Shown here one piece after another: positions 33,918 to 63,612 of a stretch of DNA of 64,000 bases. The stretch spans positions 12,667 to 76,666 of the forward strand of contig CAKSKB010000002.1 of the NCBI GenBank assembly GCA_934464705.1, read 5' to 3'. Position 1 is the stretch's first letter. Every line of letters begins with the position of its first letter. This DNA is from an uncultured Clostridia bacterium (GTDB lineage: Bacteria > Bacillota > Clostridia > HGM11514). The notes beneath the pieces are model-generated. The model saw nothing but the letters and a program-made list of their open reading frames with translations, did not search any database and was not told the DNA's origin. The position numbers and the translations under genes were made by a program.

Positions 33918-37703
<3,786 letters not shown>

Positions 37704-37795
37704 AAGCATATCACCTCTTCAAAAAATTTCAGTCCCCGTTTTGCCGGAACGGAACCGATTTGAAAAAACTCTGTAACACAAATTTCAAAAAACTC

Positions 37796-37824
37796 TTGAT
37801 TTTTTATTGAATTTGTGATATAGT
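37796..37824 (+). promoter_or_regulatory. Plus-strand promoter in the rpoB / surface-protein intergenic region
   Basis: TTGATT-17 nt-TATAGT with a TGn extended -10. Confidence 0.4.
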
Positions 37825-37991
37825 ATGTATATAAGGATAATATGCCCTTATATCATACATATAGCATTATATGATAATATCATAATCCGAAGGTTTTGTC
37901 AAGGGTTTTTGGCAATATTTTTCGGCTTTTTTTATTTTTCGGGGATTTTTATTCAAACAGGGGTGGGGTGCCGAGGCATCTCACCCTTTTA

Positions 37992-38046
37992 ATTTTGCCG
38001 CAAATCCTTGCTTTGCTTGCTGCGAAACAGGGATTTGCGGCAAAAT
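37992..38046. other. Perfect 16-bp inverted repeat (stem-loop)
   Basis: ATTTTGCCGCAAATCC-N23-GGATTTGCGGCAAAAT. Confidence 0.7.
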
Positions 38047-38224
38047 GTTTTTACATATTAATTGTCTTAAATATCAATTTGGCTGCATGACAAAAAAATA
38101 CCCCCAATTTTAGAAAAAACATCGTCTTGTTTATTGATGTGCTTTGTGTTAAAATAAAGTTAGGTGAGAGAATGCTTAATCTCTTGACCGGATAAATTAA
38201 TATTTATTAAAGGAGCGAAGAAGC

Positions 38225-40594: not shown

Positions 40595-40626
40595 TTCAGA
40601 GTATGTTTTTTATCGGGAGGTAGCAC

Positions 40627-43600
40627 ATGAATAAAAAATCTTTTGTATCTATATTGCTTGTGATTTGCATGATTTTCGGCAGCATGAGCGTTTTTGCGGA
40701 GCCGGCTGCGGAGTATGACCGTGTGAGCCTCGGTTATACCGATTCCGTTTTTGTAAAAACGGAAGTCGGGTCAACACCGCAGCAAATTAAGGTTTTCGGT
40801 ATAACTGATAACGCATACGGCGAAGCAGTTACCAAAACCGACCTTACAGGAAGCGAAGGGCTTACATATACCATAAGTGATGAAAATGTTGCATCTGTAA
40901 GCAGTGACGGATACCTTACAATTAAGGATTACGGCATAGCAACCCTTACGGTAACCGACGGAAAAACAACCGCGAGCGTTCTTATTTCGGTTACGGCAAA
41001 GGGCGCCCTCGGCGGATTGAACAGCAACGGAGAAGTGTTTACTTTTGATGGTGATTCATTTCCGTTTGAATCAAGGAGCAACTGCGAAAAAGAAACAGTA
41101 AATGTCCGCAGAGGAGACGGAGCTGCTTTGATTAAGAGTGATTGCCTTGACCTTTATTGTTCGGACAGATGGGGTACCAATGCAGGTTCGTCAGGATATG
41201 TTGAAGCGTGGTTTTATGACCCCGGTCAGTTGGATGACGGAACATGGGCAGCCGGAACGCCGTTCGGCTGGTTTGACCACAACGATGTGGGTGCAGCGGA
41301 AGGAAACCCGAACTATGGCTGGGGAAGAGCGGATTTGAGACTTCAGATGCACGACCAGATCGGAGCAATGTACGGAAATGCCACCTACAAAATGAGCAAA
41401 AACTCAACAGATATTAAGAGAACAAAGGGCTGGCATCAGCTTGTAATTCTTGCTTATAACGACGGAACAATCGACGATGAAACAAGAAAGAAGCCAAGCG
41501 GAAACTTAATAGGACAGGAACAGCTGATGAACCGCTGCCGATTTTTTATTGACGGTCAGGAAACTGCAATGGACGGTTTTCCGGACGGCACGGTTTTTGC
41601 GGGCTGTCTTACAATCCGTGCAAACGGCGGAAGCGGCTGCCCTGTCGACGATATAGGTCAGTACCGATATATTGACATGAAAAATGTGAATATATCCGGT
41701 AATTTGATGGAGGGCGAAGCGCTTTCGGTTTCGTATGATTACATCAATACATACGACGCTGTTAAAACGGAAAACATCAAGTGGTTCCGAGGCGAAGGCG
41801 ACACATGGGCAGAAATCGAAGGCGCAGCAGGCAAAACCTATACTCTGACCGCCGACGATGTAGGAAAGTTCGTTAGGGCTGAAATTGCGGTAACCGCCGA
41901 AGATAATAATTCGGACACATACCTTACCGAAAAAACAACAACCGCTAAGAGAGAAATTATAACAAAATCTGCCGTAATTTCTCCCAAATCCATCCCGAGT
42001 ATTTCTGATATTACGGTTTCGGGCAACTATGATATAAATGAAAAGCTTACTCTTTCCTATAACTTTGTTTGCGAAGACGCTCAGGAAGGAAACAGCGAAA
42101 TCCATTGGCAGATATTCAAAAACAGTGCATGGCAGAATATCAACGGTGCAACAGGTAAAAGTTATACTGTACCGGTTGAATACAGTGGCGCAAAATTAAG
42201 AGCGGCAATTACACCTGTTACGAAAGACGGAATTGTCGGCGAAACCGCTTATTCAGGCGAAATAAACATTAAACAGAGAATTATCAGCAAAATGGATATT
42301 TTCGTTTCGGAAAACGGTGATGATAACAATCCCGGCACACAGGCGGCTCCGCTCAAAACTTTCGCAAGAGCTAAGGAAATGGCAAGAATTTATCACAATA
42401 ATCTGAATGTTCCGGTTATTGTGAATATCATGGGCGGAACTTATAAGCTTACAGAAAGCCTCAGTTTTACGGAGCTTGATTCCGGAAGCGCCGAAGCGCC
42501 CATTACCTGGAGAGCATTTGACGGTGAGGAGGTTTTAATCACCGGAGGAAGCAAGGTTGATAACTCAAAAATCACAAAAGTTACCGATAAGGCAATTCTG
42601 GACAGAGTGATTGACGAGCAGGCAAAAGACAAGCTTATGCAAATGGATATCAGCGATTATGTTGATACCATTGAAGAAATTCCGCTATTTACTTACTATA
42701 ATGAGGATTCCGCATACCGTCCGACGCAGATTTATATTAACGGTACGGCGCTCGGTTATTCAAGATGGCCGAACAACACTCCCGGCAGCGCTTGGCTCAG
42801 AATTAACGGAAATATCACAGGCGGTTCAAATAAAACATTCGGTTATACCGATGATACCGACAGGGCAAAGCTTTGGTCCGACGAGGCGTTTGACGACCTT
42901 TACATTGACGGATTTATTAATAATTACTTTGTTAACGAAGTATATAAAGTTAAATCCATAGATAAGGATAAAAAAATAATCTCGCAGCCTGCCGGTGCTT
43001 CTTCCGCGGCGGAAGACCACAGATTCTATTTCTTTAACCTTATTGATGAAATTGACTGCCCCGGAGAAAGCTATATCGACAGAAATAACAAGATTGTTTA
43101 TTTCTATCCTACTGCCGATATGGAAACTGCCGATGTCTGGGTTTCTTCTCTGCAGGATGATCTTATAACTCTGTCGGGAGCTTCATACCTGAATTTCGAA
43201 AATCTTAAGTTCGGATACTCAAGAGGAAACGCTTTCACGGGAGAAAATTGCAGCAATGTCACATTTGACGGACTTACGATTTTCAATATGTCCGGCTCCG
43301 GTGTGCTGATTGACGGAAGCGGACAAACAAATAATATATTCAGGAACTCTCATGTGTACAATATGGGATACAAAGGCGTTGAACTCGGCGGAGGTTCATG
43401 GGCGCCTTACACGAAGTCCGGCAATATTATTGAAAACAACCGTATTCATGCTTGCGGAAGAATTTACAGATCTTATTCCCCGGCAATCGGCGGCGTGGGC
43501 ATGGACGGAGAAATCAGAAACAATAAGCTTTATGATTCCGACCACATGCTTGTAAATATGGGTACCGGTACACAGTTCTATAATAACGAGGTTTACAATG

Positions 43601-46600
43601 CTGTTCAGCAGGCGTCGGATATGGGTGCGCTTTACTGGGGCAGAGGCGTTTATCTGATGGGTATCGAAGTGCGCGACAATTATTTCCACGACATCGGAAA
43701 TGTGTACGGCGGTTACGGTCAGCAGGCTGTGTTCTGGGACGACAGAGCAACCGGCCCGATTCTTACCGGCAATGTATTCTACCGCGCTACCGCGCAGAAC
43801 GGTAATACAAGCACGAGCTTTGCCGTTAAAACAAACGGCGGTGTTTATTCTCAGATTGAAAACAATATTTTTGTTGATAATCCGGTTGCGGTATTCTTCC
43901 AGTATGCCTCCGGCGAGGGATTCGAGTTCCCGAAACAGGGATACTGGTGGCTTTGGGCTATGGGTTACAAAGGTGAAGAAGCCGATAACTCCATGATGAA
44001 CTGGTATCATATTAACAACGGCACAATAACGGCTGACAGCTGGAAAGAACGCTATAAAGACACGCTCTGGTCGCCGATCATCGACGGAACGGTGTTCCCC
44101 AAAGATGATTCTGCCGAAGTCGGCAGATTAAGAAGCCAGGGCAAAACTGCGGAAATTATTGAGCTTGCTAAGAAATATGCTCCCGATAATACCAATATTT
44201 ATCAGAACAATATCCTTGTAAATATTATTCAGGGCAACAGCGGGCATGTCGGATATGCGCAGCCGAAGAATATTTACCGCGGTGATACATCGATATTCAA
44301 AGATTACGGAAAAGATTTTTCTCTTACGGATTCGGCACTTAAAACTGTTAACGAAAGCATAAGTTTTAAGAATGTCGATATGAGCAAAATGGGTCTTAAA
44401 ACAAATATCGGCGGTTCTGAACCTGTGGTTTCCGATGTCAAAATTACCGGAAACAACCGCAAAGGCGGCACAATCAGAGTTGAATATAAGTACGAAGATG
44501 CCGACGGAGACAGCGAAGGTATTTCCGAATATGCATGGTATACCGTTAATTCAAGGGGTGTTAAAACGCCGCTTGGCAAGTTTGATTCAACCCTTCTTTT
44601 GAGCGAAGAACTTGTAGGCCAAAAGGTTTGCGTGACAGTGATTCCGCATGACAGAAGCGGCCTTTACGGCGAAGAATATACCTCCGCTCCGATTGAAATT
44701 TCCGGCGAAAGCGCAGCTGACAAAACAGCTTTATGGGTTCAGATTGACAAGGCGGAAGAACTTATTAAGACCGCTGTTGTCGGCGCGGGTGACGGACAGT
44801 ATCCGCAATCGGCCGTTGATAATCTCAAAGCAGCAGTCGAAGCTGCAAAGGGGGTTTCCGAAACCGATGGCGTTTACCAGTATGAGATTAACGATGCCGA
44901 AAAGGCATTAAAGCTTGCAATCGATGTTTTTGAATCCGAAAAAATATCGCTGCTCGAATATCTCCTGCTGAACGATATTCTGAAAGATACCGAAAACTGG
45001 ACCGTAATAAGCGGCGGCGCACCTGAATTTTCAAACGGCTCGATGACGCTGAAGGACGGCGCTTCGGTAAGTTATACAGGCGCAAAATACAGAAACAAAA
45101 TCTTTACATTTAATGTGAAGTTTGATAAAACGAACGACGGTGAAACCGTAAACAATGCTTTTTGTTTCAGAATATCAAATCCCAATTCCAAGATTTGGAG
45201 CGAAAACAGCGGTTATCTTCTCTGGATTAAGGACGAAACTCTGGAATATCAAAAATGGGCTCCCTCGCAGATTATTGAATCATACCCCAACACCTCGCTT
45301 GATGCAGGCAAGGTTCACTCCGTTTCGGTCGGCGTGTATGATGACAGCGATGAGGCGGTCAAATATATTCTCACGGTTGACGGCGAAAAGGTTATAGAAA
45401 AGCTTGTGCCTTCCGCAAATCTTTACGGAAACGAAGGCTACATAAGCTTTTATGCAAGCAATTCAACCATGACGATTTCGCCCGTTACTGTTGATAAATC
45501 GGCACTTTCCGATGCAATAAACGAAGCTGAGAGAGTTCTTGAAGGCGCGGTTATCGGCACGGGCTACGGTCAGTACCCGAGCAAAGCGGACCTTGAAAAA
45601 GCACTCTCCGATGCAAAAGCGGTATATGCCGACTCCTCGGCGGTTCAGTCCGATGTTGACAGAAATACCCTTGTTGTTAACAATGCCGTTGCGACCTTCC
45701 TTGCAAGCGTTTCCGGCAGCGGCACTATTGACAAAGATACTAAAATCTGCTATGATATTCCTAAGGCAGACCTTACGGTTCCGGGCGGTATATCGGATGT
45801 ATCGCTGATTGCCGAAGGAAACAGGGAACTTCCCGAAATCATTGTTAAATCACCCGACTCCGAGCTGAACATTCCGAGAGGAACAAAGGTCGGCGGCAAT
45901 TTTTCGCTTCCTCTTTCAGGAAACAATGCGGCTGCTGATATACCGAACTCGAACATTAAGAATGTTTACGGAGGTGCAAGCATAACAAAAACAGACGCTC
46001 TTGTCAGAATCGTGCTTAAAGGACAGGGCGGCTATAGGGCATCATATTTTGACGGTTCAAAATATGTGCCGATTAATACGGTTATCAGAGAAGATAGTTT
46101 TGAAGCTGCCAAAGCAGGGCTTAAATCAGCAGCTGTAAGAATAAAAGTCGGCGATGACCTTGTTATTTACATCGACAGGCTTGCGCAGATTGTAACATAT
46201 GTTCAGTCTTCGGTGCAGCCCGAAGAGCCTTCCGTAACCCCCGGTGGCAGCGGAACAACCAAGCCTTCTAACACGAATAAGGGCGGCTCAACCGCAACAG
46301 GAAACGGCGGTTTCTACTCAAATGAAACCACCAACCCGAGCATCTCCAATCCGTTTACGGATATGGCGGGTCACTGGGCAGCGGCTGATGTTCTGGCTAT
46401 GAACAAAGCCGGAATCGTTTCGGGTGTTTCGGACACGCTTTTCGACCCCGACAGAAACATCACAAGAGCAGAATTTGCCGCAATTATCGCAAGAGCACTC
46501 AAGCTTTCGGACAAAACGGCTGACTACAAAGATGTAAACGATGAATGGTTTGCACCGTATGTGGGTGCTTGCTCGGAAGCCGGTATAATCTCGGGTTATG

Positions 46601-46869
46601 ACGGGTATTTCAGACCCAATGACAACATTACAAGACAGGAAATGGCGGTTATTATTGTGAACGCCTATTCCTATCTTGAAAAGCAAGGCGCAAACGGCGG
46701 AATCGATAGTTTCTCCGATAAAGCCGAAATTGCAGACTGGGCAAAAGCGGCGGTTGACACGGCTTCATCTGTCGGCTTAATCTCGGGCATGGGCGACGGT
46801 ACATTCGCACCTGAAGCCAACGCAACCCGTGCACAGGCGGCAAGCATTGTAAGGCGACTGCTCGGCTAA
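40627..46869 (+). CDS. Giant SLH-anchored surface protein (2080 aa) with a right-handed beta-helix domain
   Basis: Signal peptide; shared N-terminal module; PbH1-type repeats (NNRIHACG, IRNNKLYDS, FYNNEVYNA, VRDNYFHDIG); two FIVAR-like helical segments (G.GQYP); lectin-like domain; three C-terminal SLH repeats (FTDMAGHWAAADV..., YKDVNDEWFAPYV..., FSDKAEIADWAKAAV...). Confidence 0.85.
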   Translation: MNKKSFVSILLVICMIFGSMSVFAEPAAEYDRVSLGYTDSVFVKTEVGSTPQQIKVFGITDNAYGEAVTKTDLTGSEGLTYTISDENVASVSSDGYLTIKDYGIATLTVTDGKTTASVLISVTAKGALGGLNSNGEVFTFDGDSFPFESRSNCEKETVNVRRGDGAALIKSDCLDLYCSDRWGTNAGSSGYVEAWFYDPGQLDDGTWAAGTPFGWFDHNDVGAAEGNPNYGWGRADLRLQMHDQIGAMYGNATYKMSKNSTDIKRTKGWHQLVILAYNDGTIDDETRKKPSGNLIGQEQLMNRCRFFIDGQETAMDGFPDGTVFAGCLTIRANGGSGCPVDDIGQYRYIDMKNVNISGNLMEGEALSVSYDYINTYDAVKTENIKWFRGEGDTWAEIEGAAGKTYTLTADDVGKFVRAEIAVTAEDNNSDTYLTEKTTTAKREIITKSAVISPKSIPSISDITVSGNYDINEKLTLSYNFVCEDAQEGNSEIHWQIFKNSAWQNINGATGKSYTVPVEYSGAKLRAAITPVTKDGIVGETAYSGEINIKQRIISKMDIFVSENGDDNNPGTQAAPLKTFARAKEMARIYHNNLNVPVIVNIMGGTYKLTESLSFTELDSGSAEAPITWRAFDGEEVLITGGSKVDNSKITKVTDKAILDRVIDEQAKDKLMQMDISDYVDTIEEIPLFTYYNEDSAYRPTQIYINGTALGYSRWPNNTPGSAWLRINGNITGGSNKTFGYTDDTDRAKLWSDEAFDDLYIDGFINNYFVNEVYKVKSIDKDKKIISQPAGASSAAEDHRFYFFNLIDEIDCPGESYIDRNNKIVYFYPTADMETADVWVSSLQDDLITLSGASYLNFENLKFGYSRGNAFTGENCSNVTFDGLTIFNMSGSGVLIDGSGQTNNIFRNSHVYNMGYKGVELGGGSWAPYTKSGNIIENNRIHACGRIYRSYSPAIGGVGMDGEIRNNKLYDSDHMLVNMGTGTQFYNNEVYNAVQQASDMGALYWGRGVYLMGIEVRDNYFHDIGNVYGGYGQQAVFWDDRATGPILTGNVFYRATAQNGNTSTSFAVKTNGGVYSQIENNIFVDNPVAVFFQYASGEGFEFPKQGYWWLWAMGYKGEEADNSMMNWYHINNGTITADSWKERYKDTLWSPIIDGTVFPKDDSAEVGRLRSQGKTAEIIELAKKYAPDNTNIYQNNILVNIIQGNSGHVGYAQPKNIYRGDTSIFKDYGKDFSLTDSALKTVNESISFKNVDMSKMGLKTNIGGSEPVVSDVKITGNNRKGGTIRVEYKYEDADGDSEGISEYAWYTVNSRGVKTPLGKFDSTLLLSEELVGQKVCVTVIPHDRSGLYGEEYTSAPIEISGESAADKTALWVQIDKAEELIKTAVVGAGDGQYPQSAVDNLKAAVEAAKGVSETDGVYQYEINDAEKALKLAIDVFESEKISLLEYLLLNDILKDTENWTVISGGAPEFSNGSMTLKDGASVSYTGAKYRNKIFTFNVKFDKTNDGETVNNAFCFRISNPNSKIWSENSGYLLWIKDETLEYQKWAPSQIIESYPNTSLDAGKVHSVSVGVYDDSDEAVKYILTVDGEKVIEKLVPSANLYGNEGYISFYASNSTMTISPVTVDKSALSDAINEAERVLEGAVIGTGYGQYPSKADLEKALSDAKAVYADSSAVQSDVDRNTLVVNNAVATFLASVSGSGTIDKDTKICYDIPKADLTVPGGISDVSLIAEGNRELPEIIVKSPDSELNIPRGTKVGGNFSLPLSGNNAAADIPNSNIKNVYGGASITKTDALVRIVLKGQGGYRASYFDGSKYVPINTVIREDSFEAAKAGLKSAAVRIKVGDDLVIYIDRLAQIVTYVQSSVQPEEPSVTPGGSGTTKPSNTNKGGSTATGNGGFYSNETTNPSISNPFTDMAGHWAAADVLAMNKAGIVSGVSDTLFDPDRNITRAEFAAIIARALKLSDKTADYKDVNDEWFAPYVGACSEAGIISGYDGYFRPNDNITRQEMAVIIVNAYSYLEKQGANGGIDSFSDKAEIADWAKAAVDTASSVGLISGMGDGTFAPEANATRAQAASIVRRLLG
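40700..41897 (+). repeat. Direct repeat copy B (~1.2 kb)
   Basis: See copy A. Weaker similarity continues for about 50 nt beyond the block. Confidence 0.95.
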
Positions 46870-47229
46870 CCATTAATGCCTTATGACGACTAATTTTTGC
46901 CCTTTTCGGCTTGTCGTCATTGAAAGGCAAACGCCTGTCAGCGATCTCCGCACCAAAAATGACTAAAAATTATTTCGCCATAAGGTGCGAGCAGTTTTTA
47001 TCGAGCTGATTTTTCTCAAGACAAGCAAGCGAATGAGGTTAATACTTTGTGTATTATCAAGTGAGTTTGCGCAGTATTGGGGAAAATCAGCCGATAAAAA
47101 CCAATAACGGTTAGCCGAGAAGTCGCCTAAACGCCTGCTTGATAAATAGCTATATCTCTCTCCTTATCTCAATGGGTGGCAGGAAATTATCTTGCCGCCC
47201 ATTGGTTAATAATTATCGGGGGTAATCTT

Positions 47230-48138
47230 ATGGATGATAAATTAAAAAACAAATTTCTGTTTTACAATCAGGAACAGATTATTATCAGGAAGGATTACAC
47301 TGAAAAAAGCGGTAAAACGGTTGAATTCGGTGAAGCCTCCGAACGGAATTACTTTTCGATTTATTATTGCATAAACGGTAAATATTGCGTCAATTACAAC
47401 GGTAAAGCTTTCAGGATGAATCCCGGGGATATGATAATTGCGGATTATGATACAGACATTGTTCTTCCATGCAAGCTTTCAGCCAATGCCGAAGTTTATA
47501 TCCTGGATTTCCTGTCGGAAGGTGTAACGGATTTCGGTTTTCACTGCACAAGGCTTGCGGAACTTTATAATAATTCTGTTTTGAAAAATATTCTTGACAA
47601 CGATTTTGCTATTCCGAAGGACTGGTACTATCATGATGAAAACGGGGACATCAAGAAAATACTCGACAAGGTTTATGATGAATACAGCACCCGCGAATTC
47701 GGATATCTTACGGCTTTGAAGCTTAATATTCAAAGTGTGCTTCTGACGCTTTTAAGAGAGCTTGTTAAAAACCAAAAGGGAATAGGCTATTCATATTATG
47801 TTCAGCATGTGGTTGACTATATCAAAACGAATTACAATAAACAGATTACGCTTACCGAAATAAGCCTGAATTTCGGATATTCGCTTTCTTATATAAGCAA
47901 CAGATTCAAAAGTGAGGTCGGAATGCCGTTTGTAAAGTATCTGCAGACTTACAGAATACACAAAGCTGCAGCAATGATCAGAATGACCGATTACAGCATA
48001 AGTATGATTTCAGAGGCGGTCGGGCTTTATAATTTGAAGTATTTTGAGGAAAAATTCAGAGAAATAGTTGGTATTACGCCGATAAAATACAGAAAAATGT
48101 ATAAGAAGAATAATCCGATATTTAAAGATAAACAATAA
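47230..48138 (+). CDS. AraC-family transcriptional regulator
   Basis: Cupin-like N-terminus and a C-terminal double HTH (ITLTEISLNFGYSLSYISNRFK...GITPIKYRK). Start moved to the ATG at 47230. Confidence 0.85.
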   Translation: MDDKLKNKFLFYNQEQIIIRKDYTEKSGKTVEFGEASERNYFSIYYCINGKYCVNYNGKAFRMNPGDMIIADYDTDIVLPCKLSANAEVYILDFLSEGVTDFGFHCTRLAELYNNSVLKNILDNDFAIPKDWYYHDENGDIKKILDKVYDEYSTREFGYLTALKLNIQSVLLTLLRELVKNQKGIGYSYYVQHVVDYIKTNYNKQITLTEISLNFGYSLSYISNRFKSEVGMPFVKYLQTYRIHKAAAMIRMTDYSISMISEAVGLYNLKYFEEKFREIVGITPIKYRKMYKKNNPIFKDKQ

Positions 48139-48192
48139 GACAAATCAAAAACGGTGATTCAGCTAATGCGGAATCGCCGTTTTTGATTATCC

Positions 48193-48912
48193 TCAGTCTT
48201 TCTTTCTGAGCACAATTTTTATGAAGTTAAGGTATTTTCCGCCTCCGGCTTCCATTGACCTGCGGTCGCCTTTGGCATACTCGTTATCCTGCATGAGCCA
48301 GTCTGCCCAAACCTCGTCATTGCTTTCCATTTCGCTTACGGCAATTACTTCCGCTCCTTGGCATTTTCCTGCCATTTTGCTCCAATACTCAACATCGTGC
48401 ATATATTCAAGCTGTTCAGGAGTCCACGAAAGCAAAAGCTCTTTCGGAAGATTATCGTGGCAGTCCTTTTTCATTCCCGGAATGGCGATGTAAATATATC
48501 CGCCGCTTTTAACATACGGCAAAAGCTTGTCATCAAGGTAATTTTCATCTCTTCCGAAATAATTGTATGAATCCGTGCTGACAACCGCATCGAAAAACTC
48601 CTTATTAAAAGGAAGGTTTTCGGCGTCCGCTTTCACGGGTATTATTTTTTCGCGGCTCAGCCCCATTTCGTCAAAAAATTTTCGGTTTTCCTCCGGGTCG
48701 CTCCAAAGGTCTGCGGCATATACGGTGTATCCGTACTCCCTTGCGAGAAAAACGCTTGTCAGACCCTGTCCGCTGCCAAGGTCGCACACAACCGCGTTTT
48801 CGGGAATTTTACTGTCAATAAGAAGTTCTTCTTCGAGCTTTACGGGGTTTGGTCCCATAATTTTTGACATTAATTCCGGTGTGTTGTATTTTTCGCTTTT
48901 AATATATTTCAT
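48193..48912 (-). CDS. Class I SAM-dependent methyltransferase
   Basis: Motif I VCDLGSGQGLTSVFLA and post-I YAADLW. Confidence 0.8.
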   Translation of the reverse strand: MKYIKSEKYNTPELMSKIMGPNPVKLEEELLIDSKIPENAVVCDLGSGQGLTSVFLAREYGYTVYAADLWSDPEENRKFFDEMGLSREKIIPVKADAENLPFNKEFFDAVVSTDSYNYFGRDENYLDDKLLPYVKSGGYIYIAIPGMKKDCHDNLPKELLLSWTPEQLEYMHDVEYWSKMAGKCQGAEVIAVSEMESNDEVWADWLMQDNEYAKGDRRSMEAGGGKYLNFIKIVLRKKD

Positions 48913-48914
48913 TA

Positions 48915-49532
48915 TTATTCCTTGCCTTTCTCTTTTATAAATTGTTCAATGTGCCGTTTAAGCAGATTTTCCGCTTCCGCCTTTTCCGATGTGCCGTCTG
49001 TCATATTTATAAGAAGAAACATCGGGGCATAAAACTCAACGGCAAGCCTTTTAGGGTCGCCCGGCTTCATAGTGCCGTTTTCTGTCATCCTGCGGAATAT
49101 ATCCTCCGTATACGAAACCGGACCGGTTGTAAGGCAGTTCCTGTATAATTCCGCAATTTCGGGATTTCGGTACTGCTCAAGCATAAGCATTTTCCTGAAA
49201 TCGGATGCAAACTCATCCTCGGTCCAGAATCTGAACTGCGAAACGGTAAACTCCTTCAGGTTTTCGAAAGATATGCCTTCGTAGCTGCCCGGTGCGTCAT
49301 CGTATTTCTTTTCCGGAACGCTGTGCTTTTTTGAGTTTTCTTCATCAATGGCAAACATTCTTTTGACGATGCTGTCAAAAATGTCCCGCTTGTTCTTGTA
49401 GTGCCTGTAGAGCGCACCTTTGGTGATTCCGAGTTCTCCCGAAATCTCGCTGACCGAAACCGCTTCATACCCTTTTTCGGCAAACATCTTTAAAGCGGTT
49501 TTTAAAATCTTTTCTTTTGTATCAGACATCAA
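48915..49532 (-). CDS. TetR/AcrR-family transcriptional regulator
   Basis: KEKILKTALKMFAEKGYEAVSVSEISGELGITKGALYRHYKNK is a TetR N-terminal HTH. Confidence 0.9.
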   Translation of the reverse strand: MMSDTKEKILKTALKMFAEKGYEAVSVSEISGELGITKGALYRHYKNKRDIFDSIVKRMFAIDEENSKKHSVPEKKYDDAPGSYEGISFENLKEFTVSQFRFWTEDEFASDFRKMLMLEQYRNPEIAELYRNCLTTGPVSYTEDIFRRMTENGTMKPGDPKRLAVEFYAPMFLLINMTDGTSEKAEAENLLKRHIEQFIKEKGKE

Positions 49533-49543
49533 ATCGCCTCCAT

Positions 49544-49592
49544 GTAAACGCGCGTTTACTTATATTATAGTAAACAATCGTTTACTTGTCAA
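49544..49592 (-). promoter_or_regulatory. tetR promoter with two palindromic operators
   Basis: Minus strand reads TTGACA-17 nt-TATAAT. GTAAACAATCGTTTAC (49570-49585) fills the spacer and GTAAACGCGCGTTTAC (49544-49559) lies just downstream of the -10. Confidence 0.65.
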
Positions 49593-49604
49593 GTGTTTTT
49601 TTGA

Positions 49605-49652
49605 AAAAATAAAAAAAGATTCCGATGCAGTCATATTCTGCACCGAAATCTT
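49605..49652 (-). terminator. Terminator of the riboswitch-controlled surface-protein gene
   Basis: Minus strand reads AAGATTTCGGTGCAG-N7-CTGCATCGGAATCTT followed by TTTTTTTATTTTTT. Confidence 0.7.
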
Positions 49653-49663
49653 CTTTTTGTTTG

Positions 49664-52600
49664 TTATTCGGAAATTCTTGTAAGTATTGCCGCCGCTTCC
49701 GCTCTTGTTGCGGTGTCGGACGGATTCAGTGTGGTTTCGCTTTTCCCGACCATTATTCCGTTTGAAACGGTGTATTTAAGTGCGTCTGCAGCGTATTCCG
49801 AAATGCTGTCAAAATCGGAATATACCGTTAAATCTGCGTCTGCCGATATATCTTTGCCTTTAAATTCGGCATATCTTGCAATGATTGCCGCCATCTGCTC
49901 GCGGGTGATGTTTTCATCGGGAGCAAACTCGGTTTCGCTCATTCCGCTGATGATTTTGTTTTCATATCCCCACGAAACGGCCTTTTCATACCATGCGTCC
50001 TTTGAAACATCGGCAAAGCTTGCCGCAGCTGCGGCCGGTTCGCCTTCAAGTCTGTAAAGAATGGTTATAAACATTGCCCTTGTGAGAAGTGCGTTCGGAG
50101 CAAATTCGGTTTCCGTTACTCCCTGCATAAGACCTTTTTCAAACACAGCCTTTACAGAATCGAAATACCATGCGCTGCTTTCGATATCCTTAAACGGAAT
50201 TTCGGTTTCGGCAGGCTTTTCATCGGGTTTTTCTTCGGAGGTATCATCGGTCTTGCCGTCTGTTTTATTATCATCGGTCTTTGAACCGCCGCCGGAACTG
50301 CCGGTGCCGGTATGTCCGCCTCCGTCCCAGTCTTCGGTGTTTTCTTCTTTTGTCCAGTCCTCGGTATAATAGAGCAAAACTTTTGCGCCCGAACTGAGTT
50401 TGTAATCGCTTATTCCGACGCTCGGGATTTTGCCGTTGACCTTATACATCCAGCCGCTGTTTGCGCCCTTATCCGCATTGCTGAGGGTGAAGCCGCTTTT
50501 TGTTACCGACCTGATATAGCCGCTTTCGATACCGTCCGCCGTTATGCCTTCGCCTTCCAGTGCGGTTTTAAGAAGGTCCGCAACGGTTGAGCCTCTCTGC
50601 ACGGTAACCGATTTTGAAAGCCATTCTTCGCCGTCTGCGTCAATTGTGAGCACTGCGGTAATATTTTTTGAAGCCGTTCCGCCGGAGGGGGTATCGGTAT
50701 CTTCTTCGCCCTCGGTTTTTCCCTCATTGCTTGAGATGAAGTCTTCTACGGTTTTGTTAATAATGTTTCCGCCCGAAACATTGAGAGAATATATATTGAA
50801 GGAACTGCAATTTTCAAGCTGGCGGAGAACAATCAGTGCGCGGAATCCCTGTTCCGTTGCAAGCGCCGTTGCTTTATCAAAGGCATCCCCGTCACGGTAG
50901 CCTGTTGCGAAGCCGTTTGCGCCATCGTTGACATAGAGCATAAGCGCATTTTCAAGCGAGCAGCCGTTTTTGATAAATCTCGGGTCTGAGGAAGGCTTAA
51001 TGCCCATCGCCGCAAGACCTGTTATTACCATTGCGTCGGAATTTACATTTCCGTATGAGCCGTTTTCGCCCTGTGCGGCGGACAGTCCGCTTACTGCCTT
51101 GTCCGCAAATCCCTTTACGGTTTCGCTGCTGCCGTAAAATCTTGCGAGGGCCGCAAGCGCTGTGCCTGTCGTATCAACATCGTCGTACTTTTCGCCGCCC
51201 CAGATTGAATAAAAAAGTCCGTTTTCGCCCTGAGCCGATATGATTGTTGAAATAAGAGCGTTTCTCTGCTCATCAGAAAGCTTAAGCTGACCTGCCTCCT
51301 CCGCAAGGAGAACCCACGGAGCGGTATAATAGCTGCTTCCGAAATCCATTTTGCCGAGCTTTTCGGCATTGCTGTAAGATTCCGTTTTACCGAACGCTGT
51401 AAGCTTTTCTGTGTTTACGCCGAGCGCCGAAAGAATAATTTCCGCTTTTGCGCGGTCGGTTACAAGAGGAGTGGTCTTGGCGAGTGCATTTACGGTCAGA
51501 TTTTTATAGTTTTCCTTGTCCGTTTTGTTCTCGCCGAAACCGAGTTTTTCATAAACAGCACAGTCAAATACTGCCCATTCGCTCCATTTGCCGGCATAGC
51601 TTGCCGCAATTTTATCCATGAGCGAATCCGCCTTTGAATCCGAAGGATAAATATTTACCGTTACGGGTTTTCTGAGGCTTGCGTTTTCGCTTTCAAATTT
51701 AAGTGTTGCGGTTTCTTCTATGACCTTTGCGGTTTCGTTCGGTTTAACGAGAGAAATTCCGTTTTCATCGCAGGAAATATATCCTTTTGTGATGTCCTTT
51801 TCGCCCTGCGATGCGGAAAGTTTTATGGTTTCGTCCGCTGTTTCGCCGTCTTTTATAAGGTTGAGTGCACCCTCTTTATATGCGGCAATGACATCGCTGT
51901 ATTTTGCGGATTCCAAAACAAGTTCGTTTGTAATTTCGCCTTTTTCGGCGGTGTTTTCACCGCTGTCGGTTACATTCGCAAGAGTGCCCTTGCCCCAAAG
52001 GCGGTTTGAATGCCCGTCAAGTCCCGAAATTGCGCCGGAAACGGAGCAGCCGTTTATGCTCGGCTTGAAATCTCCGGTCTGATATCCTGCCTGTCCCAAA
52101 AGTCCGCCGACGGTGCACCCGGGAGCATAAATATCACCTGTGTTTTCACAGTTTTCAAGCTGTACGCAGTTTGCGTTCGAGCCGACAATTCCTCCGACAT
52201 AAGCCTCTTTTTCGGAACCGGTAACCATGATAAATCCGTTGTTTTTGCTGCCGCTTACGGTAAGGCGGATGTTTTCCCACTTGTATTCCACGCTGTCGTC
52301 ATATCCGCCGACGATGCCGCCTACTCCCGCAGAACCTCTCGCAAGCGATGAAACGGAGGCGTTATTGACGCAGTTTTCTATTGTGACATTTCCTCTTGCC
52401 CTTGCCGCTATTCCTCCGACAAAAGCATAGGGTTCGGAGCAGTAAATTTCACCGTTTACGGTAAGATTTTTAACTGCTGCCCCTTCGAGGCATCCGAAAA
52501 ATCCGAAATAGCTTAAATTCGGGTTGTCAACCGTTACAGTGACGGAGTGACCGTTTCCATCGAAGCTTCCTTTGAATGAATACGCCGAGTTTTTGCCGAG

Positions 52601-54112
52601 GGGCGTCCAGCTGCCCTTAACGGTTACATCGTTTTCAAGGCTGACAAAAGAGTCCGAGGATTTTCCGTCATTTACAAGTGCCGCAAGGCTTAAAAGCTCG
52701 CTTGCCTTTGTGATTCTGTAGGGGTCTTCTTCCGTTCCGGCGCCCTGAAGTTCTGCCGGTTTATAAGAAAGATGCACCCATACGGTTTTGACTGTTTCGT
52801 TATCTTCATCGCCTACGGTGAAGGTCTGATCCTTTACATCGTAGTAATCCGAAAGATTTGTTACTTCATATTTATATTCGCCTTTTTCGGAAAGAAGATA
52901 TTCTCCGTTTTCCGGAATAATTTCTTCATCGCCTTTGAATAATCTGACGGTTCCGTCTTCCGTTCCCTCAAATTTCACCGTGCATGAATATGCGGGTTCC
53001 GGGGGTGCCGGAGGTTCGGTGGGGTTCCATACCGGAACGGGATAATTATCAAACTCGCCTTCTCTTACTTCAAAACCTTCAAGCGGAAGGGCTTTTAATT
53101 CGTCCGTTGTTTTTCCCTCTGCCGAAACGCTGCCGGAATAGAGCATTTCAAACTTGCTCCACGAGGAAGGAGAGGGGTTTTTGTCAGTATCATAATAGAA
53201 GTTTTTGCTTTCAATCGGGAAACTTGAGCGGCTGTAGCAAACGCCGTACTGTTTGGATCCCTTTATTTTTGCGCCGAGGTAAGTGTTTTTGAGACTGAGA
53301 GAACCGTTTGTTGAGTTAACCCATGAAAGCACGCCTCCGGCATACTGGGCAGAGCCCGAAATATCGCCTAGGATTGCGCAGTTTTCAACGCTGAGCGTTG
53401 TATAATACTGAGAAACGCCGAGAATCGTACCGGCATAATTTGATTTTGCGGCTGTGATTGCAACGCTGCTTACCGTGTTTTTGACGGAAAGCGTGGTTTT
53501 ATCATTTATGCTGCCGCTTGCCGAACCTGCAATTCCGCCGAGATAGGTGTTCGTTGTGGCAGAGTTGCTCTCGATTTTTCCGTTTACGATACAGTTGTCT
53601 ATCGTAACATTTGAACCGTCGCTTATAAGACCGGCAATCACACCGGCATAGTTATAATTGTCTATGCCTTCCGTTATTGAAGCGTTTTCAAAGATTATAT
53701 CGCGGACCGTCGCATTGCCTGAAATTTCGCCGATAAGACCGGTATATACTATTACCGAACCGGAAGTATATGAGTAACTGCCTTTGCCGCCCTTAAGAGA
53801 GAGGTTTTTGATTTTATGACCGTAGCCCATAAATGCGCCGGTGAGCTTTTTTATAAAGCTTGTCTGCGGTTCGGTTCCGCTCATATCGATATCGTCTGCG
53901 AGCGAAACATATCCCACTTCGGAAAGTTCCGAAAGAGCCGAAAGCTGCTCTGCATTTTCGATTATGTAGGGGTCTGCCTCCGTTCCGGAGCCTTTAAGCT
54001 CCGCTGCAAATGCAACAGCGCTCATGCACGAGAGAATCATAACCAGTGCAAGAAGGAGCGCAAGCGATTTGCCGAATACTGTCCTTTTCATTGTTTTTAC
54101 CTGACCTTTCAT
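49664..54112 (-). CDS. SLH-anchored surface protein: two GLUG-motif modules + alpha/alpha-toroid + DUF4430-like domain + three SLH repeats (1482 aa)
   Basis: Signal peptide (start may be the ATG at 54091, MKRTVFGK). GLUG-type repeats (YVGGIVGSNANCVQLENCENTG, VGGLLGQAG, YLGGIAGSASG). Toroid repeats (SAQGENGLFY, AAQGENGSYG, DVDTTGTALAAL). DUF4430-like GWMYKVNG...YKLSSGAKVLLYY. SLH repeats FKDIESSAWYFDSV..., FADVSKDAWYEKAV..., FDSISEYAADALKY.... Confidence 0.85.
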   Translation of the reverse strand: MKGQVKTMKRTVFGKSLALLLALVMILSCMSAVAFAAELKGSGTEADPYIIENAEQLSALSELSEVGYVSLADDIDMSGTEPQTSFIKKLTGAFMGYGHKIKNLSLKGGKGSYSYTSGSVIVYTGLIGEISGNATVRDIIFENASITEGIDNYNYAGVIAGLISDGSNVTIDNCIVNGKIESNSATTNTYLGGIAGSASGSINDKTTLSVKNTVSSVAITAAKSNYAGTILGVSQYYTTLSVENCAILGDISGSAQYAGGVLSWVNSTNGSLSLKNTYLGAKIKGSKQYGVCYSRSSFPIESKNFYYDTDKNPSPSSWSKFEMLYSGSVSAEGKTTDELKALPLEGFEVREGEFDNYPVPVWNPTEPPAPPEPAYSCTVKFEGTEDGTVRLFKGDEEIIPENGEYLLSEKGEYKYEVTNLSDYYDVKDQTFTVGDEDNETVKTVWVHLSYKPAELQGAGTEEDPYRITKASELLSLAALVNDGKSSDSFVSLENDVTVKGSWTPLGKNSAYSFKGSFDGNGHSVTVTVDNPNLSYFGFFGCLEGAAVKNLTVNGEIYCSEPYAFVGGIAARARGNVTIENCVNNASVSSLARGSAGVGGIVGGYDDSVEYKWENIRLTVSGSKNNGFIMVTGSEKEAYVGGIVGSNANCVQLENCENTGDIYAPGCTVGGLLGQAGYQTGDFKPSINGCSVSGAISGLDGHSNRLWGKGTLANVTDSGENTAEKGEITNELVLESAKYSDVIAAYKEGALNLIKDGETADETIKLSASQGEKDITKGYISCDENGISLVKPNETAKVIEETATLKFESENASLRKPVTVNIYPSDSKADSLMDKIAASYAGKWSEWAVFDCAVYEKLGFGENKTDKENYKNLTVNALAKTTPLVTDRAKAEIILSALGVNTEKLTAFGKTESYSNAEKLGKMDFGSSYYTAPWVLLAEEAGQLKLSDEQRNALISTIISAQGENGLFYSIWGGEKYDDVDTTGTALAALARFYGSSETVKGFADKAVSGLSAAQGENGSYGNVNSDAMVITGLAAMGIKPSSDPRFIKNGCSLENALMLYVNDGANGFATGYRDGDAFDKATALATEQGFRALIVLRQLENCSSFNIYSLNVSGGNIINKTVEDFISSNEGKTEGEEDTDTPSGGTASKNITAVLTIDADGEEWLSKSVTVQRGSTVADLLKTALEGEGITADGIESGYIRSVTKSGFTLSNADKGANSGWMYKVNGKIPSVGISDYKLSSGAKVLLYYTEDWTKEENTEDWDGGGHTGTGSSGGGSKTDDNKTDGKTDDTSEEKPDEKPAETEIPFKDIESSAWYFDSVKAVFEKGLMQGVTETEFAPNALLTRAMFITILYRLEGEPAAAAASFADVSKDAWYEKAVSWGYENKIISGMSETEFAPDENITREQMAAIIARYAEFKGKDISADADLTVYSDFDSISEYAADALKYTVSNGIMVGKSETTLNPSDTATRAEAAAILTRISE

Positions 54113-54134
54113 GAATAATTTATTTATATAAACC

Positions 54135-54167
54135 GCAAAAAAGCGGTAATCTTAAAAAGATTACCGC
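54135..54167 (-). terminator. Riboswitch expression-platform terminator (attenuator)
   Basis: Minus strand reads GCGGTAATCTT-TTT-AAGATTACCGC followed by TTTTTT, about 25 nt upstream of the start codon. Confidence 0.75.
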
Positions 54168-54224
54168 AGCGGACTTTTTTCTGCACACAAACAATACAGC
54201 ACACCCACAAAAAAGATGTACCCG

Positions 54225-54412
54225 ATAAACGCCAAGCAGGTCTTCTGACTCGCTCCGTAAAAATATCTTATGCCGCCTGCCTTCTCAGTTTCCCAATGAC
54301 TGACTTTCGTCAACGGCGGCAAAAGCGTTCCGGAACATACAGCGACCGTCATCGTCCGGGATTCTCACCCGGTTCCCTTTTCACCTCATATGCCTCCCGA
54401 GGGCATATGCGA
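54225..54412 (-). promoter_or_regulatory. Cobalamin (B12) riboswitch
   Basis: Minus strand reads ...GGTGAAAAGGGAACCGGGTGAGAATCCCGGACGATGACGGTCGCTGTA...CATTGGGAAACTGAGAAGGCAGGCGGC...GAGTCAGAAGACCTGCTTGGC. The last element is the B12 box (consensus rAGYCMGgAgaCCkGCc). Confidence 0.85.
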
Positions 54413-54445
54413 CACTTTGCGCAGTTATTCAATTTTACAAACCAA

Positions 54446-54474
54446 AGTATAGCACAACCGCCGGGGTTTGTCAA
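54446..54474 (-). promoter_or_regulatory. Promoter of the riboswitch-controlled gene
   Basis: Minus strand reads TTGACA-17 nt-TATACT, starting 4 nt after the vanW-family stop. Confidence 0.6.
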
Positions 54475-60040: not shown

Positions 60041-60276
60041 CTAAGCGTTTTACCCTGCTGTGTGCGTGAACTCCGACAAAGAATTTAACCGATAGATGAA
60101 AATAAGGGAGATCTTATTCCGCCGTGGCGTATACGCCCCCGTCTTTTGACGCCAGGGGACATATAAAGCGGCGGATGGGTCACCCACCTGTGTGAAGCAG
60201 GTTAAATTTTCACGGAGAAAACGGCACCGCGGGGCATTTTTGTATATTAATATATTTATATAAAGGAAGTGCTGTT

Positions 60277-60870: not shown

Positions 60871-63612
60871 ATGATAAAATCAGTAATTGAAAAAATGTTC
60901 GGTAGCTATTCCGACCACGAAATCAAACGAATCGAAAAAACGGCAAACAAAATCGAGTCGTATGAAGAGGAGTACAGGGCTTTGAGCGATGAGGAACTTA
61001 AAGCAAAAACTCCGTACTTTAAAGAAAGGCTTAAAAACGGCGAAACGCTTGACGATATTCTGCCCGAAGCTTTTGCGGCTGTCCGTGAGGCGGCTGACAG
61101 AGTGCTCGGAATGAGACACTTTCATGTACAGCTTCTCGGCGGTATAATTCTTCATCAGGGAAGAATCGCCGAAATGAAAACCGGTGAGGGTAAAACGCTT
61201 GTTGCAACGCTGCCGTCGTACCTCAATGCACTTTCGGGGAAGGGCGTTCATGTTGTAACCGTAAACGATTACCTCGCAAGGCGTGACAGTGAATGGATGG
61301 GTAAAATCCATGAATTTTTGGGACTTAAGGTCGGGCTTATCGTGAACGGCCTTCCGCAGCCTCTGAGAAAGGAAGCCTACGACGCTGACATAACATACGG
61401 CACAAACAACGAAATGGGCTTCGATTATCTTCGCGACAACACCGCAATTTACAAGAAGGATATGGTTCAGAGAGGGCATAATTTTGCAATCGTCGATGAG
61501 GTCGACTCAATCCTTATCGATGAAGCGAGAACTCCTCTTATTATAGCGGGTCTCGGGGATAAGTCCAGCGAACTTTACGAGAGAACCGACAGGTTCGCAA
61601 GAACCCTCACTCCCATGAAGGTTGTGGAGCTTGACAACAAGGAACTTCACGATGATGTCGATGCGGATTACATTGTTGACGAAAAGGCAAGAACCGCTAC
61701 CCTTACCGCAAGAGGAACAAAAAAGGCGGAGGCTTATTTCGGAATCGAGAATCTGACAGACGCCGAGAATATAGAAATAATGCACCATGTCAACCTTGCA
61801 ATCAGGGCGTACGGAATCATGCGCCGTGATATAGACTATGTCGTTAAAGAAGGTCAGGTGCTTATAGTTGATGAATTTACCGGGCGAATCATGCTCGGCA
61901 GACGCTACAGCGAGGGTCTGCACCAGGCGATTGAAGCCAAGGAAGGCGTAAAAATTGCGGACGAGAACAAAACCATCGCAACAATTACGCTTCAGAATTA
62001 CTTCAGGCTTTACGATAAGCTTTCCGGTATGACCGGTACGGCGCTTACGGAAGAAAAGGAATTCCGTGAAATCTACAAGCTTGATGTTGTTGCAATTCCT
62101 ACGAATAAGCCGGTAGGTAGGGTTGACCTTCCGGACCTTATATATAAAAACGAGCACGGCAAGTTTGCGGCGATTATAAACGAAGTCGCAGCGGCTCACG
62201 AAAAGGGACAGCCGGTGCTTATCGGTACAACATCGATTGAAAAGTCGGAACTTCTCAGCCGTGAACTTAAAAGAAGGGGCATCAGGCATGAAGTCTTAAA
62301 CGCTAAGCAGCACGAAAGAGAAGCCCAGATTGTTGCACAGGCCGGTAAGCCGGGTGCGGTTACGGTAGCAACCAACATGGCGGGCCGAGGAACGGATATT
62401 GTTCTCGGCGGCAATGCCGAATTTATGGCAAAGCATGAGCTGCGCCATCTCGGATTTTCCGGGCTTGCCGTTGCGCTTTGCGACGGAAACGGCGAAACGG
62501 ACAACGAAGAAGTTACAGAGGCAAGAGAAAAATATAAAGAACTCTGCAAAGAGTTTAAACAAAAGCTTGAACCCGAAAAACAGAAGGTTCTTGAAGCCGG
62601 CGGTCTTTATATTATAGGAACGGAGCGCCATGAAAGCCGCCGTATAGATAATCAGCTCAGAGGCCGTGCCGGCCGTCAGGGTGACCCGGGTAAATCAAGG
62701 TTCTTTCTGTCGCTTGACGATGAACTTATGCGTCTTTTCGGTTCGGAAAGGATTCAGGGATTTATTGACCGCAATCTTGAAGACGACCAGCCGATTGAAA
62801 ACGCATTCCTTACAAAACAGATTGAAAGCGCACAGTCAAGGGTTGAGGGCAGAAACTTTGACGCCAGAAAGAGCGTTCTTGAGTATGACGATGTCCTGAA
62901 CACGCAGCGCCAGAAGATTTACGAGCAGCGCCAGATGGTGCTTGACTGCATGGATATAAGGGAAAGTATTCACCATATGATTACCTCGACAATCCGTGAT
63001 TTTGTGAAGTCGTATACCTCGGAGAGCAGGTACGCCGAGGAGTGGGATATGAGAGCGATTTTGGACCATTTTGAAGGGCTTTTCTTAGAGCCGGGTCAGC
63101 TCACATATACAAAAGACGAACTTTCTGACCTTACCGAGGACATTCTTGTAAACGACCTCTGTGAGGCGGCGGACAAGTTCTATGCCGAGAAGGAAGAGGC
63201 CGTCGGCAGCGATATTATGCGTGAGTTTGAGCGTGTAATGCTGCTCCGTACGGTTGATAAGAATTGGATTGAGCATATCGAGAACATGGAGGAACTTAAG
63301 CAGGGCATAAGGCTTCGTGCGTTTGCACAGCAGGATCCGCTTATCGCCTTCAAGACGGAAGGCTCTGACATGTATGACGAGATGAACGAAACAATCCGCC
63401 GTGAAACGGTCGAACTTCTGTTTAAAGTTAAAATAAGAAAAGAACAGGAAATCAAGCGTGAACAGGTTGCCGCTCCCGTCAATGCGTCACACGGCGACGG
63501 CTCGGACAATTCGGCAAGAACCGTTGTAAAACCGAAAAAAGTCGGCAGAAACGACCCGTGCCCCTGCGGTTCGGGCAAGAAATATAAACAATGCTGCGGC
63601 AGAAACGAATAA
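60871..63612 (+). CDS. secA: Preprotein translocase ATPase SecA
   Basis: [14 protein letters not shown] (Walker A), [27 protein letters not shown] and a C-terminal zinc motif [14 protein letters not shown]. Confidence 0.97.

Follow-up and report, generated by a model that had tools for sequence, protein, structure and literature searches.

A riboswitch-controlled, transcobalamin-like SLH protein as a candidate for vitamin B12 capture at the Gram-positive gut bacterial surface

Competition for vitamin B12 shapes gut communities, and to our knowledge capture of the vitamin at the cell surface is known in detail solely for Bacteroides (BtuG, BtuH, BtuJ). In Gram-positive Firmicutes, according to a review of September 2026, the capture of cobamides outside the cell 'remains entirely uncharacterized' (PMC13616437). 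What a capture protein of such bacteria might look like is the question raised by a 64,000-nucleotide stretch of DNA from an uncultured Clostridia bacterium (contig CAKSKB010000002.1 of assembly GCA_934464705.1, positions 12,667 to 76,666; hereafter the 64-kb window). Its minus strand carries a 1482-codon open reading frame (ORF) at 49664-54112, in which an earlier reading of the letters alone (the sequence-only reading) had recognized a surface-anchored protein behind a cobalamin riboswitch, with the two-domain layout of transcobalamin and intrinsic factor. Our analysis confirms the observation and supports the interpretation, because a covariance-model match in the leader, a transcobalamin-like predicted fold, and the recurrence of the riboswitch and terminator design ahead of homologs from dozens of further species all held. 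We put the probability that the gene encodes a B12-repressed, cell-wall-anchored corrinoid-capture protein at about 0.75, a reading in which ligand binding, the direction of regulation, the hand-off of the ligand and the part played by the GLUG modules are what we infer. Together with its family, the locus is a riboswitch-validated and strong candidate for B12 capture at the surface of Gram-positive gut bacteria, one that spans hundreds of clusters and shares the fold animals use for B12 carriage.

The leader and its gene

A scan of the window against all Rfam families returned two matches above threshold, a cobalamin riboswitch and a 6S RNA. The former, the sole riboswitch in the window, lies at 54434-54218 (-) and matches RF00174 with 67.0 bits (gathering score 31.5 bits, E 2.2e-14) over model positions 1-189, that is, the whole model, with a peripheral P6 extension and a B12 box. 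The B12 box GAGUCAGAAGACCUGC and the GGGAA/GGUG core AAAAGGGAACCGGGUGAGAAUCC fit the RF00174 consensus at high posterior probability, and both are invariant in an alignment of six leader sequences. The promoter scan places a near-consensus sigma-70-type promoter at 54474-54446 (-), TTGACA-17-TATACT with a TG extension (11 of 12 matches). Between the aptamer and the start codon stands the intrinsic terminator of the expression platform (54137-54167, -), recovered by both the terminator scan and the leader fold: a GC-rich hairpin, GCGGTAATCTT-TTT-AAGATTACCGC, at 54167-54143 with an 11-bp stem and a 3-nt loop, followed by T6. All three elements had been named in the sequence-only reading, and each is where that reading had put it. 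An antiterminator pairing was sought in the minimum-free-energy fold of the leader and none is obvious, the fold comprising aptamer-like helices and the terminator only (z-score -1.7). Judged from the terminator architecture, the riboswitch very likely works as an OFF switch, high B12 leading to termination.

The first ATG of the gene (54112) has no Shine-Dalgarno sequence. The second (54091, Met8) has AGG 8 nt upstream, and translation from it yields MKRTVFGKSLALLLALVMILSCMSAVAFA followed by AE (MKRTVFGK through AFA, with cleavage predicted before AE), a classical signal peptide. Because of this AGG and the canonical signal peptide we prefer Met8, which is probably the true start; the ORF at 49664-54112 (-) otherwise stands, with a product that is probably 1475 rather than 1482 aa long. 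Looked up by exact match from either start codon, the protein had no record. Residue numbers below count from the first ATG, so that the signal peptide, inferred from its n-h-c pattern, spans aa 1-36 (54005-54112, -). At the other end the terminator scan finds a 20-bp stem with a T-run at 49657-49611 (-), the gene-end terminator as a whole covering 49605-49657, beyond which a TetR gene has its own perfect TTGACA-17-TATAAT promoter (49535-49592, -). Given this gene-end terminator and the independent TetR promoter, the natural reading is that the gene is monocistronic, as had been proposed.

The transcobalamin-like unit, its family and its accessory modules

From N- to C-terminus the protein is ordered GLUG, GLUG, toroid, DUF4430, linker, SLH. 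Its presumed ligand-binding unit was modelled as a fragment, aa 815-1262, with AlphaFold2 (AF2) from a 26-sequence alignment, giving a mean predicted local distance difference test score (pLDDT) of 87.6; in the model, fragment residues 11-285 form a toroid and 336-436 a beta-grasp domain, with a disordered linker between them. In the full protein the alpha/alpha toroid covers aa 830-1105 (50798-51625, -; pLDDT >90), matches the transcobalamin alpha domain in Foldseek, and carries the (S/A)AQGENG repeats named in the sequence-only reading (AQGENG at aa 960 and aa 1013) along with a family-invariant ATEQGFRAL helix. The DUF4430, or SLBB, beta-grasp domain occupies aa 1149-1252 (50357-50668, -), has the invariant motifs GY..S and SGW.Y.VNG, and is recognized by Pfam (PF14478, aa 1174-1250, 4.6e-15, 56.3 bits against a cutoff of 23.8) as well as by Foldseek and profile comparison.

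Searched against the PDB with Foldseek, the modelled fragment has transcobalamin, haptocorrin or intrinsic factor at all of ranks 1-15 (E 1.7e-13 to 1e-8), in alignments of ~470 columns that cover both domains; squalene-hopene and terpene cyclases, C3d and GH105 toroids rank lower, only at E>=5e-4. The human transcobalamin beta domain alone (5np4) gives a target-normalized template-modelling (TM) score of 0.71 at 27% identity. It is also the top PDB match of a beta-domain profile, collinear over ~100 residues and weak (E 0.037), and in that alignment the invariant Tyr of GY..S lines up with PYLTSV of transcobalamin, as does the invariant Trp of SGW with its FW. What defines the transcobalamin SLBB clade is a beta-hairpin that follows the helix as an insert and bears a conserved hydrophobic residue stacking against the nucleotide base (PMC1796856). 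The AF2 model has such an insert after the beta-grasp helix (helix 363-371, strands 376-379 and 388-391), and the conserved aromatic of the hairpin, the Tyr of GY..S, would fit the base-stacking position; Bloch 2017, on the transcobalamin beta domain, gives no residue-level contact list. The toroid lies directly N-terminal of DUF4430 in a protein with a signal peptide, which is the layout of the SLBB clade. On the strength of the model we hold with high confidence that toroid and DUF4430 adopt a transcobalamin-like two-domain fold, much as the sequence-only reading had anticipated, and the pair likely binds a corrinoid.

Relatives of the unit are numerous. A word-index search matched 58 proteins, mostly 650-780-aa combinations of toroid, DUF4430 and SLH from Clostridia/Oscillospiraceae, and an HMMER scan of 1.84 billion cluster representatives returned 272 matches with the E-value cutoff at 1e-30, 1837 with it relaxed to 1e-10 and 4894 at E<=1e-3. 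Most of them span both domains, and the unit usually sits towards the C-terminal end of proteins 500-3500 aa long. Among GTDB contigs drawn from one genome per species, 327 stretches hold a relative (at least 327 species-level genomes), and the best 80 of these 327 are the basis of all locus counts given here. The 80 loci come nearly all from metagenome-assembled genomes of gut and rumen Clostridia, plus Oscillibacter sp. MSJ-31, Eubacterium nodatum ATCC 33099 and Senimuribacter. The closest, L001 (Clostridia bacterium CON6 bin1, JAXGBA01), encodes a 1482-aa ortholog with 73% identity and shares the upstream synteny of the window (SpoIIP, NUDIX, VanW, riboswitch). Across the family the core motifs of toroid and beta domain are invariant and the N-terminal modules vary.

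The riboswitch travels with this family. RF00174 itself was found upstream in five of the first eight loci tested, and a family covariance model built from those five leaders and that of the window identifies, at E<=1e-3, a cobalamin riboswitch upstream of the gene and on its strand in 46 of the 80 loci, with three further, weaker or truncated matches. Loci cut by contig ends fall outside the tally, and ~80% of the assessable loci carry the riboswitch; the orthologs in Oscillibacter sp. MSJ-31 and E. nodatum ATCC 33099 lack it. In ~38 loci 10-760 nt separate the end of the aptamer from the ORF, and in eight the aptamer lies ~1.4-1.75 kb upstream. Of 47 family leaders, 42 have a terminator of hairpin and U-tract between aptamer and start codon, which makes the transcription-termination OFF design a family trait. 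In an alignment of 34 leaders, itself fitted to the covariance model, 94.6% of cells are paired and 49 of 61 pairs show compensatory double changes; none of 500 shuffles scored as high, and slid controls reached 34-46% paired.

C-terminal to the unit, a low-complexity linker rich in G, T, D, K and E (aa 1253-1304; 50201-50356, -) leads to three SLH repeats, the cell-wall anchor (aa 1305-1482; 49667-50200, -). Pfam finds SLH (PF00395) in three stretches with 112.6 bits and 8e-33, and an alignment of 170 aa relates the region to the SLH structures of Bacillus anthracis Sap (3pyw, 6bt4; ~1e-9); a PDB sequence search with the whole protein matched this region and nothing else. The signal peptide, DUF4430, linker and three SLH repeats of the sequence-only reading are thereby all located.

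The N-terminal half had been described as two GLUG-motif modules. An AF2 model of aa 37-815 (pLDDT 88.2) shows two right-handed parallel beta-helices with an Ig-like sandwich between them and a small beta domain after: GLUG module 1 at aa 37-375 (52988-54004, -; pLDDT 88), the Ig-like spacer at aa 376-452 (52757-52987, -; from AF2 secondary structure), GLUG module 2 at aa 453-723 (51944-52756, -), and a beta-rich connector without family assignment at aa 724-829 (51626-51943, -). Aligned with one another, the two helices share 29% identity (E 3e-14). By Pfam, Glug (PF07581) is sub-threshold in the window protein itself (aa 638-661, 14.2 against 20.5 bits), and homologs do carry PF07581. The best Foldseek match is the Bacteroides ovatus BACOVA_03286 'putative IgA1 protease' (3n6z, E 3.4e-8, target-normalized TM 0.63), followed by the IgA-trapping N-domain of pneumococcal IgA1 protease (6xja, 7e-4) and pectate lyases. 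The N-terminal 700 aa thus amount to two beta-helices of the GLUG and M26 IgA1 protease N-domain kind (PF07581, PF05342). Unlike M26 IgA1 protease, the window protein lacks the M26 peptidase domain, and a protease identity was ruled out, there being no HExxH motif and no match to any peptidase domain or family.

That ~700 aa of GLUG repeats should accompany a presumed B12-binding unit had seemed unusual, as had the missing neighbouring transporter; comparison with relatives explains both. The GLUG half stands as described, and it proves a recurrent partner of the unit: a tblastn search with the window modules finds GLUG within the transcobalamin-like ORF in 51 of the 80 loci (none in the other 29), and a separate GLUG gene within the same riboswitch operon in 8-11 loci. 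In the eight loci with a distant riboswitch, the gap of 1.4-1.75 kb holds a separate gene for a secreted 442-491-aa GLUG protein, and the next gene encodes one GLUG module, the transcobalamin-like unit and SLH repeats. From these two-gene operons the window protein looks like a fusion of both genes. In other family members Big_2 or PEGA-type Ig modules replace GLUG, or no such module is present, and GLUG modules are shared with hundreds of surface proteins that are otherwise unrelated, where they stand alongside Listeria-Bacteroides repeats and the M26 IgA-protease N-domain. GLUG is a generic extracellular module that the transcobalamin-like system has recruited repeatedly, and any specific role for it here is doubtful.

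No transporter gene adjoins the window gene, as had been remarked, and none adjoins the gene in its closest relatives, L001-L028 (the L006 gene is followed by an unrelated PnrA-type ABC system). Clustering of neighbour genes across the 80 loci shows an importer of the energy-coupling factor (ECF) type directly downstream in deeper relatives (L029, L030, L045, L062, L064, L066, L072-L077). A small membrane-anchored DUF4430 gene follows on the same strand in 15 loci (Pfam 1e-17 to 1e-20), a ~300-aa polytopic membrane protein resembling CbiQ in ten, and a toroid-only SLH paralog in five. The CbiQ-like cluster is weakly assigned, one member reaching 24.2 bits against the PF02361 cutoff of 25 and the others having no match. 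The double ABC ATPase encoded downstream scores 220.9 bits with the NCBIfam model of the cbiO subfamily, whose cutoff is 211.8, matches ECF ATPase models strongly, and in many cases carries a fused ECF S-component domain (ECF-ribofla_trS, 1.5e-9). In L029 riboswitch, 1801-aa GLUG and transcobalamin-like protein, small DUF4430, CbiQ-like protein and double ATPase lie on one strand, and L030 repeats this arrangement minus the riboswitch. The distribution suggests that linkage to importer genes was lost in the window and its closest relatives; an operon with CbiO/CbiQ-like genes is typical of the SLBB clade, not defining.

Several relatives vary the plan in other ways. Two tandem cobalamin riboswitches occur in each of L064 (3706-3967, 5453-5716) and L075 (3721-3985, 5471-5734), the first ahead of a ~400-aa protein with weak DUF4430 and SLH, the second ahead of a large transcobalamin-like SLH protein, with a toroid-SLH paralog and ECF genes after it; each looks like a multi-protein surface system. 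In L052, L055, L062, L066 and L073 (e.g. L073 6383-6832) the same strand encodes, just upstream of the riboswitch, a small membrane protein of the phage-holin family (PF05105, 5e-37). Giant relatives of 2689 and 3216 aa (L041 1998-10067, L049 66-9716) have several GLUG modules and two DUF4430 domains each, which suggests that a single polypeptide may offer more than one corrinoid site. In the close homologs P0073 and P0074, which also have Listeria-Bacteroides repeats, a Cu_amine_oxidN1 'stalk' takes the place of SLH, so that the anchoring module appears interchangeable around the GLUG and transcobalamin-like core.

Proposed capture mechanism and its rivals

The mechanism we propose begins in the leader. 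At high intracellular (adenosyl)cobalamin, the ligand-bound class-I-type riboswitch would let the hairpin at 54167-54143 form, and transcription would end short of the start codon; under B12 scarcity the polymerase would read through. The secreted protein would then be tethered to the secondary cell-wall polymer through its three C-terminal SLH repeats. The domain order implies a binding unit proximal to the wall, with toroid and DUF4430 sandwiching the corrinoid between them as in transcobalamin, and two distal GLUG beta-helices projecting outward as a binding or spacer arm. From there the corrinoid might pass to a small DUF4430 protein anchored in the membrane and to an importer of the ECF type, both of which would be encoded elsewhere in the genome; for this relay to an ECF importer we consider the odds roughly even. 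A bolder version, which we think rather unlikely, makes the GLUG arm the front of a Gram-positive 'B12 piracy' machine that would dock on host B12 carriers (haptocorrin, intrinsic factor-B12), mucus or B12-producing neighbours, leaving the transcobalamin-like unit to strip the corrinoid and deliver it to the ECF importer. The same proposal would make the family the best living model of a bacterial ancestor of animal transcobalamin and intrinsic factor, because this gut-Clostridia family shares the toroid-then-beta order with the animal proteins. Whatever the fate of that idea, the family gives a route to asking whether animal transcobalamin-family proteins derive from gut Firmicutes, and the locus supplies defined testable units in the binding-unit candidate (aa 815-1262) and the leader (54085-54474).

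The core idea, that bacterial toroid and SLBB proteins scavenge B12, is already published and not categorically new. Burroughs, Balaji, Iyer and Aravind (2007, Biol Direct) described bacterial proteins with a toroid and a transcobalamin-like SLBB domain, signal peptides and surface tethers, noted their association with CbiO/CbiQ genes and proposed B12 scavenging (PMC1796856), and given that paper the present finding is unsurprising. The window protein resembles their clade in its fusion to extracellular tethering modules, and the operons of its relatives do so in holding CbiO/CbiQ-like genes and a second SLBB paralog. It differs in being uncoupled from transporter genes, and riboswitch control, SLH anchoring and GLUG fusions go unmentioned in the 2007 description (PMC1796856). 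Bacterial transcobalamin-like B12 scavengers are so far computational predictions, and our literature search on riboswitch, SLH, DUF4430 and ECF combinations found no description of, or experiment on, a transcobalamin-like SLH family.

With transcobalamin, haptocorrin and intrinsic factor (PF01122 and PF14478) the protein shares the same two domains, their order and folds, and the conserved hairpin Tyr and Trp; it differs in that the unit sits within a 1482-aa wall-anchored multidomain protein, not a soluble carrier of ~400 aa. The Bacteroides proteins BtuG, BtuH and BtuJ, surface-exposed high-affinity corrinoid binders behind cobalamin riboswitches that feed a membrane transporter (PMC6143338, PMC8941943, PMC13616437), are functional analogs only. 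Theirs are a beta-propeller and DUF4465 against toroid and beta-grasp here, and an outer-membrane lipoprotein anchor with TonB-dependent BtuB against a Gram-positive SLH anchor and, in relatives, an ECF importer; neither beta-propeller nor DUF4465 is matched in Pfam/NCBIfam, and homology to BtuH/BtuJ was ruled out for want of DUF4465. ECF-CbrT type cobalamin importers and the Lactobacillus sakei Lsa1836-1840 ECF operon resemble the relatives, which carry a DUF4430 protein, a CbiQ-like T component, ECF ATPases and an S-component, none of which is present at the window locus. L. sakei encodes its alpha- and beta-like units as individual small proteins, with heme as the substrate proposed (bioRxiv 10.1101/864751).

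Several results weigh against corrinoid capture as the role of the window gene. In sequence, a 30-member family profile leads to squalene-hopene cyclase repeats (8e-7), with haptocorrin and intrinsic factor non-significant at E 0.28-0.9, and Pfam PF01122 has no match in the protein at E<=0.1. The transcobalamin relationship is visible by fold only, plus the weak beta-domain profile match. Even the fold agrees by parts, since a whole-chain TM of ~0.4 and root-mean-square deviation of ~14 A to transcobalamin imply that the modelled interdomain geometry is unlike that of holo-transcobalamin, with folds and order in agreement. Eleven loci with adequate upstream sequence are negative for a cobalamin riboswitch, by Rfam too, and the 64-kb window contains no B12 transporter, importer or B12 enzyme gene. 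The L. sakei operon, with its transcobalamin-alpha/beta-like and ECF genes linked to heme uptake, speaks for a different ligand for toroid and DUF4430, which might be a tetrapyrrole such as heme, a precursor of cobalamin or a molecule resembling an isoprenoid, with the riboswitch coupling the gene to B12 status indirectly. Such a ligand is also in keeping with the toroid profile being nearest in sequence to the squalene-hopene and terpene cyclases, and Burroughs et al. allow 'a distinct metabolite' for some SLBB scavengers (PMC1796856). We nevertheless regard it as improbable, given a cobalamin riboswitch at ~80% of assessable loci, a Foldseek ranking in which transcobalamin, haptocorrin and intrinsic factor outrank the cyclases by ~9 orders of magnitude in E-value, and a conserved hairpin aromatic that matches the base-stacking position. 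Cobalamin riboswitches almost always govern B12 or cobalt acquisition, or B12-independent isozymes.

Granting a corrinoid ligand, the protein might serve as an extracellular reservoir or competitive sequestrant, hoarding B12 on the wall or denying it to neighbours, without an obligate transporter relay. The monocistronic gene and the want of an adjacent transporter in the window and in L001-L028 favour this, as do relatives with two DUF4430 domains per protein or with extra toroid-SLH and DUF4430-SLH paralogs, which suggest capacity over relay; a reservoir role is put forward for Bacteroides BtuJ1 (bioRxiv 10.1101/2025.07.01.662609). It is, in our judgement, unlikely, for in deeper relatives an ECF importer and a membrane-anchored DUF4430 protein share the operon, implying hand-off, and repression by intracellular B12 follows the logic of an acquisition gene. 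Improbable, too, is a protein that is mainly an adhesin, or a binder of glycans or host proteins through its GLUG beta-helices, with the transcobalamin-like unit accessory or vestigial: beta-helix and Ig-like parts make up over half of the chain, GLUG is common among unrelated surface proteins, and the best structural matches of that half are the 'putative IgA1 protease' and the IgA-trapping domain, yet what the family conserves is the transcobalamin-like unit with its invariant toroid and beta-domain motifs, the N-terminal part being GLUG, Big_2, PEGA or none (29 of 80 lacking GLUG), and neither HExxH nor another catalytic signature is present. B12-repressed, wall-anchored corrinoid capture is accordingly the reading we prefer.

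Surroundings of the gene in the window

The second Rfam match in the window is a full-length 6S/SsrS RNA gene (RF00013) at 60049-60239 (+), with 99.7 bits and E 7.6e-19, just upstream of secA (60871-63612). In L001 the ortholog is directly followed by rpoB and rpoC. In the window, ORFs that match rpoB and rpoC by size only (33918-37709 and 29704-33903, -) lie ~12 kb further on, and the intervening segment (~37800-49600) holds two very large surface proteins at 38225-40594 and 40627-46869 (AIR9-Ig, beta-helix, FIVAR, SLH), an AraC regulator, a methyltransferase and the TetR regulator. This segment looks like an insertion in the window or a deletion in L001.

Two other SLH proteins are encoded in the window, at 19809-22910 (+) and 40627-46869 (+), one with N-terminal and one with C-terminal repeats. 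Taken with the SpoIIP, Gpr and YtxC genes of the window, these SLH proteins indicate that the source is a spore-forming Firmicute relying heavily on SLH anchoring. Finally, two 16-bp palindromes, GTAAACGATTGTTTAC and GTAAACGCGCGTTTAC, flank or overlap the TetR promoter at 49535-49592 (-), where they are likely to be autoregulatory operators of TetR.

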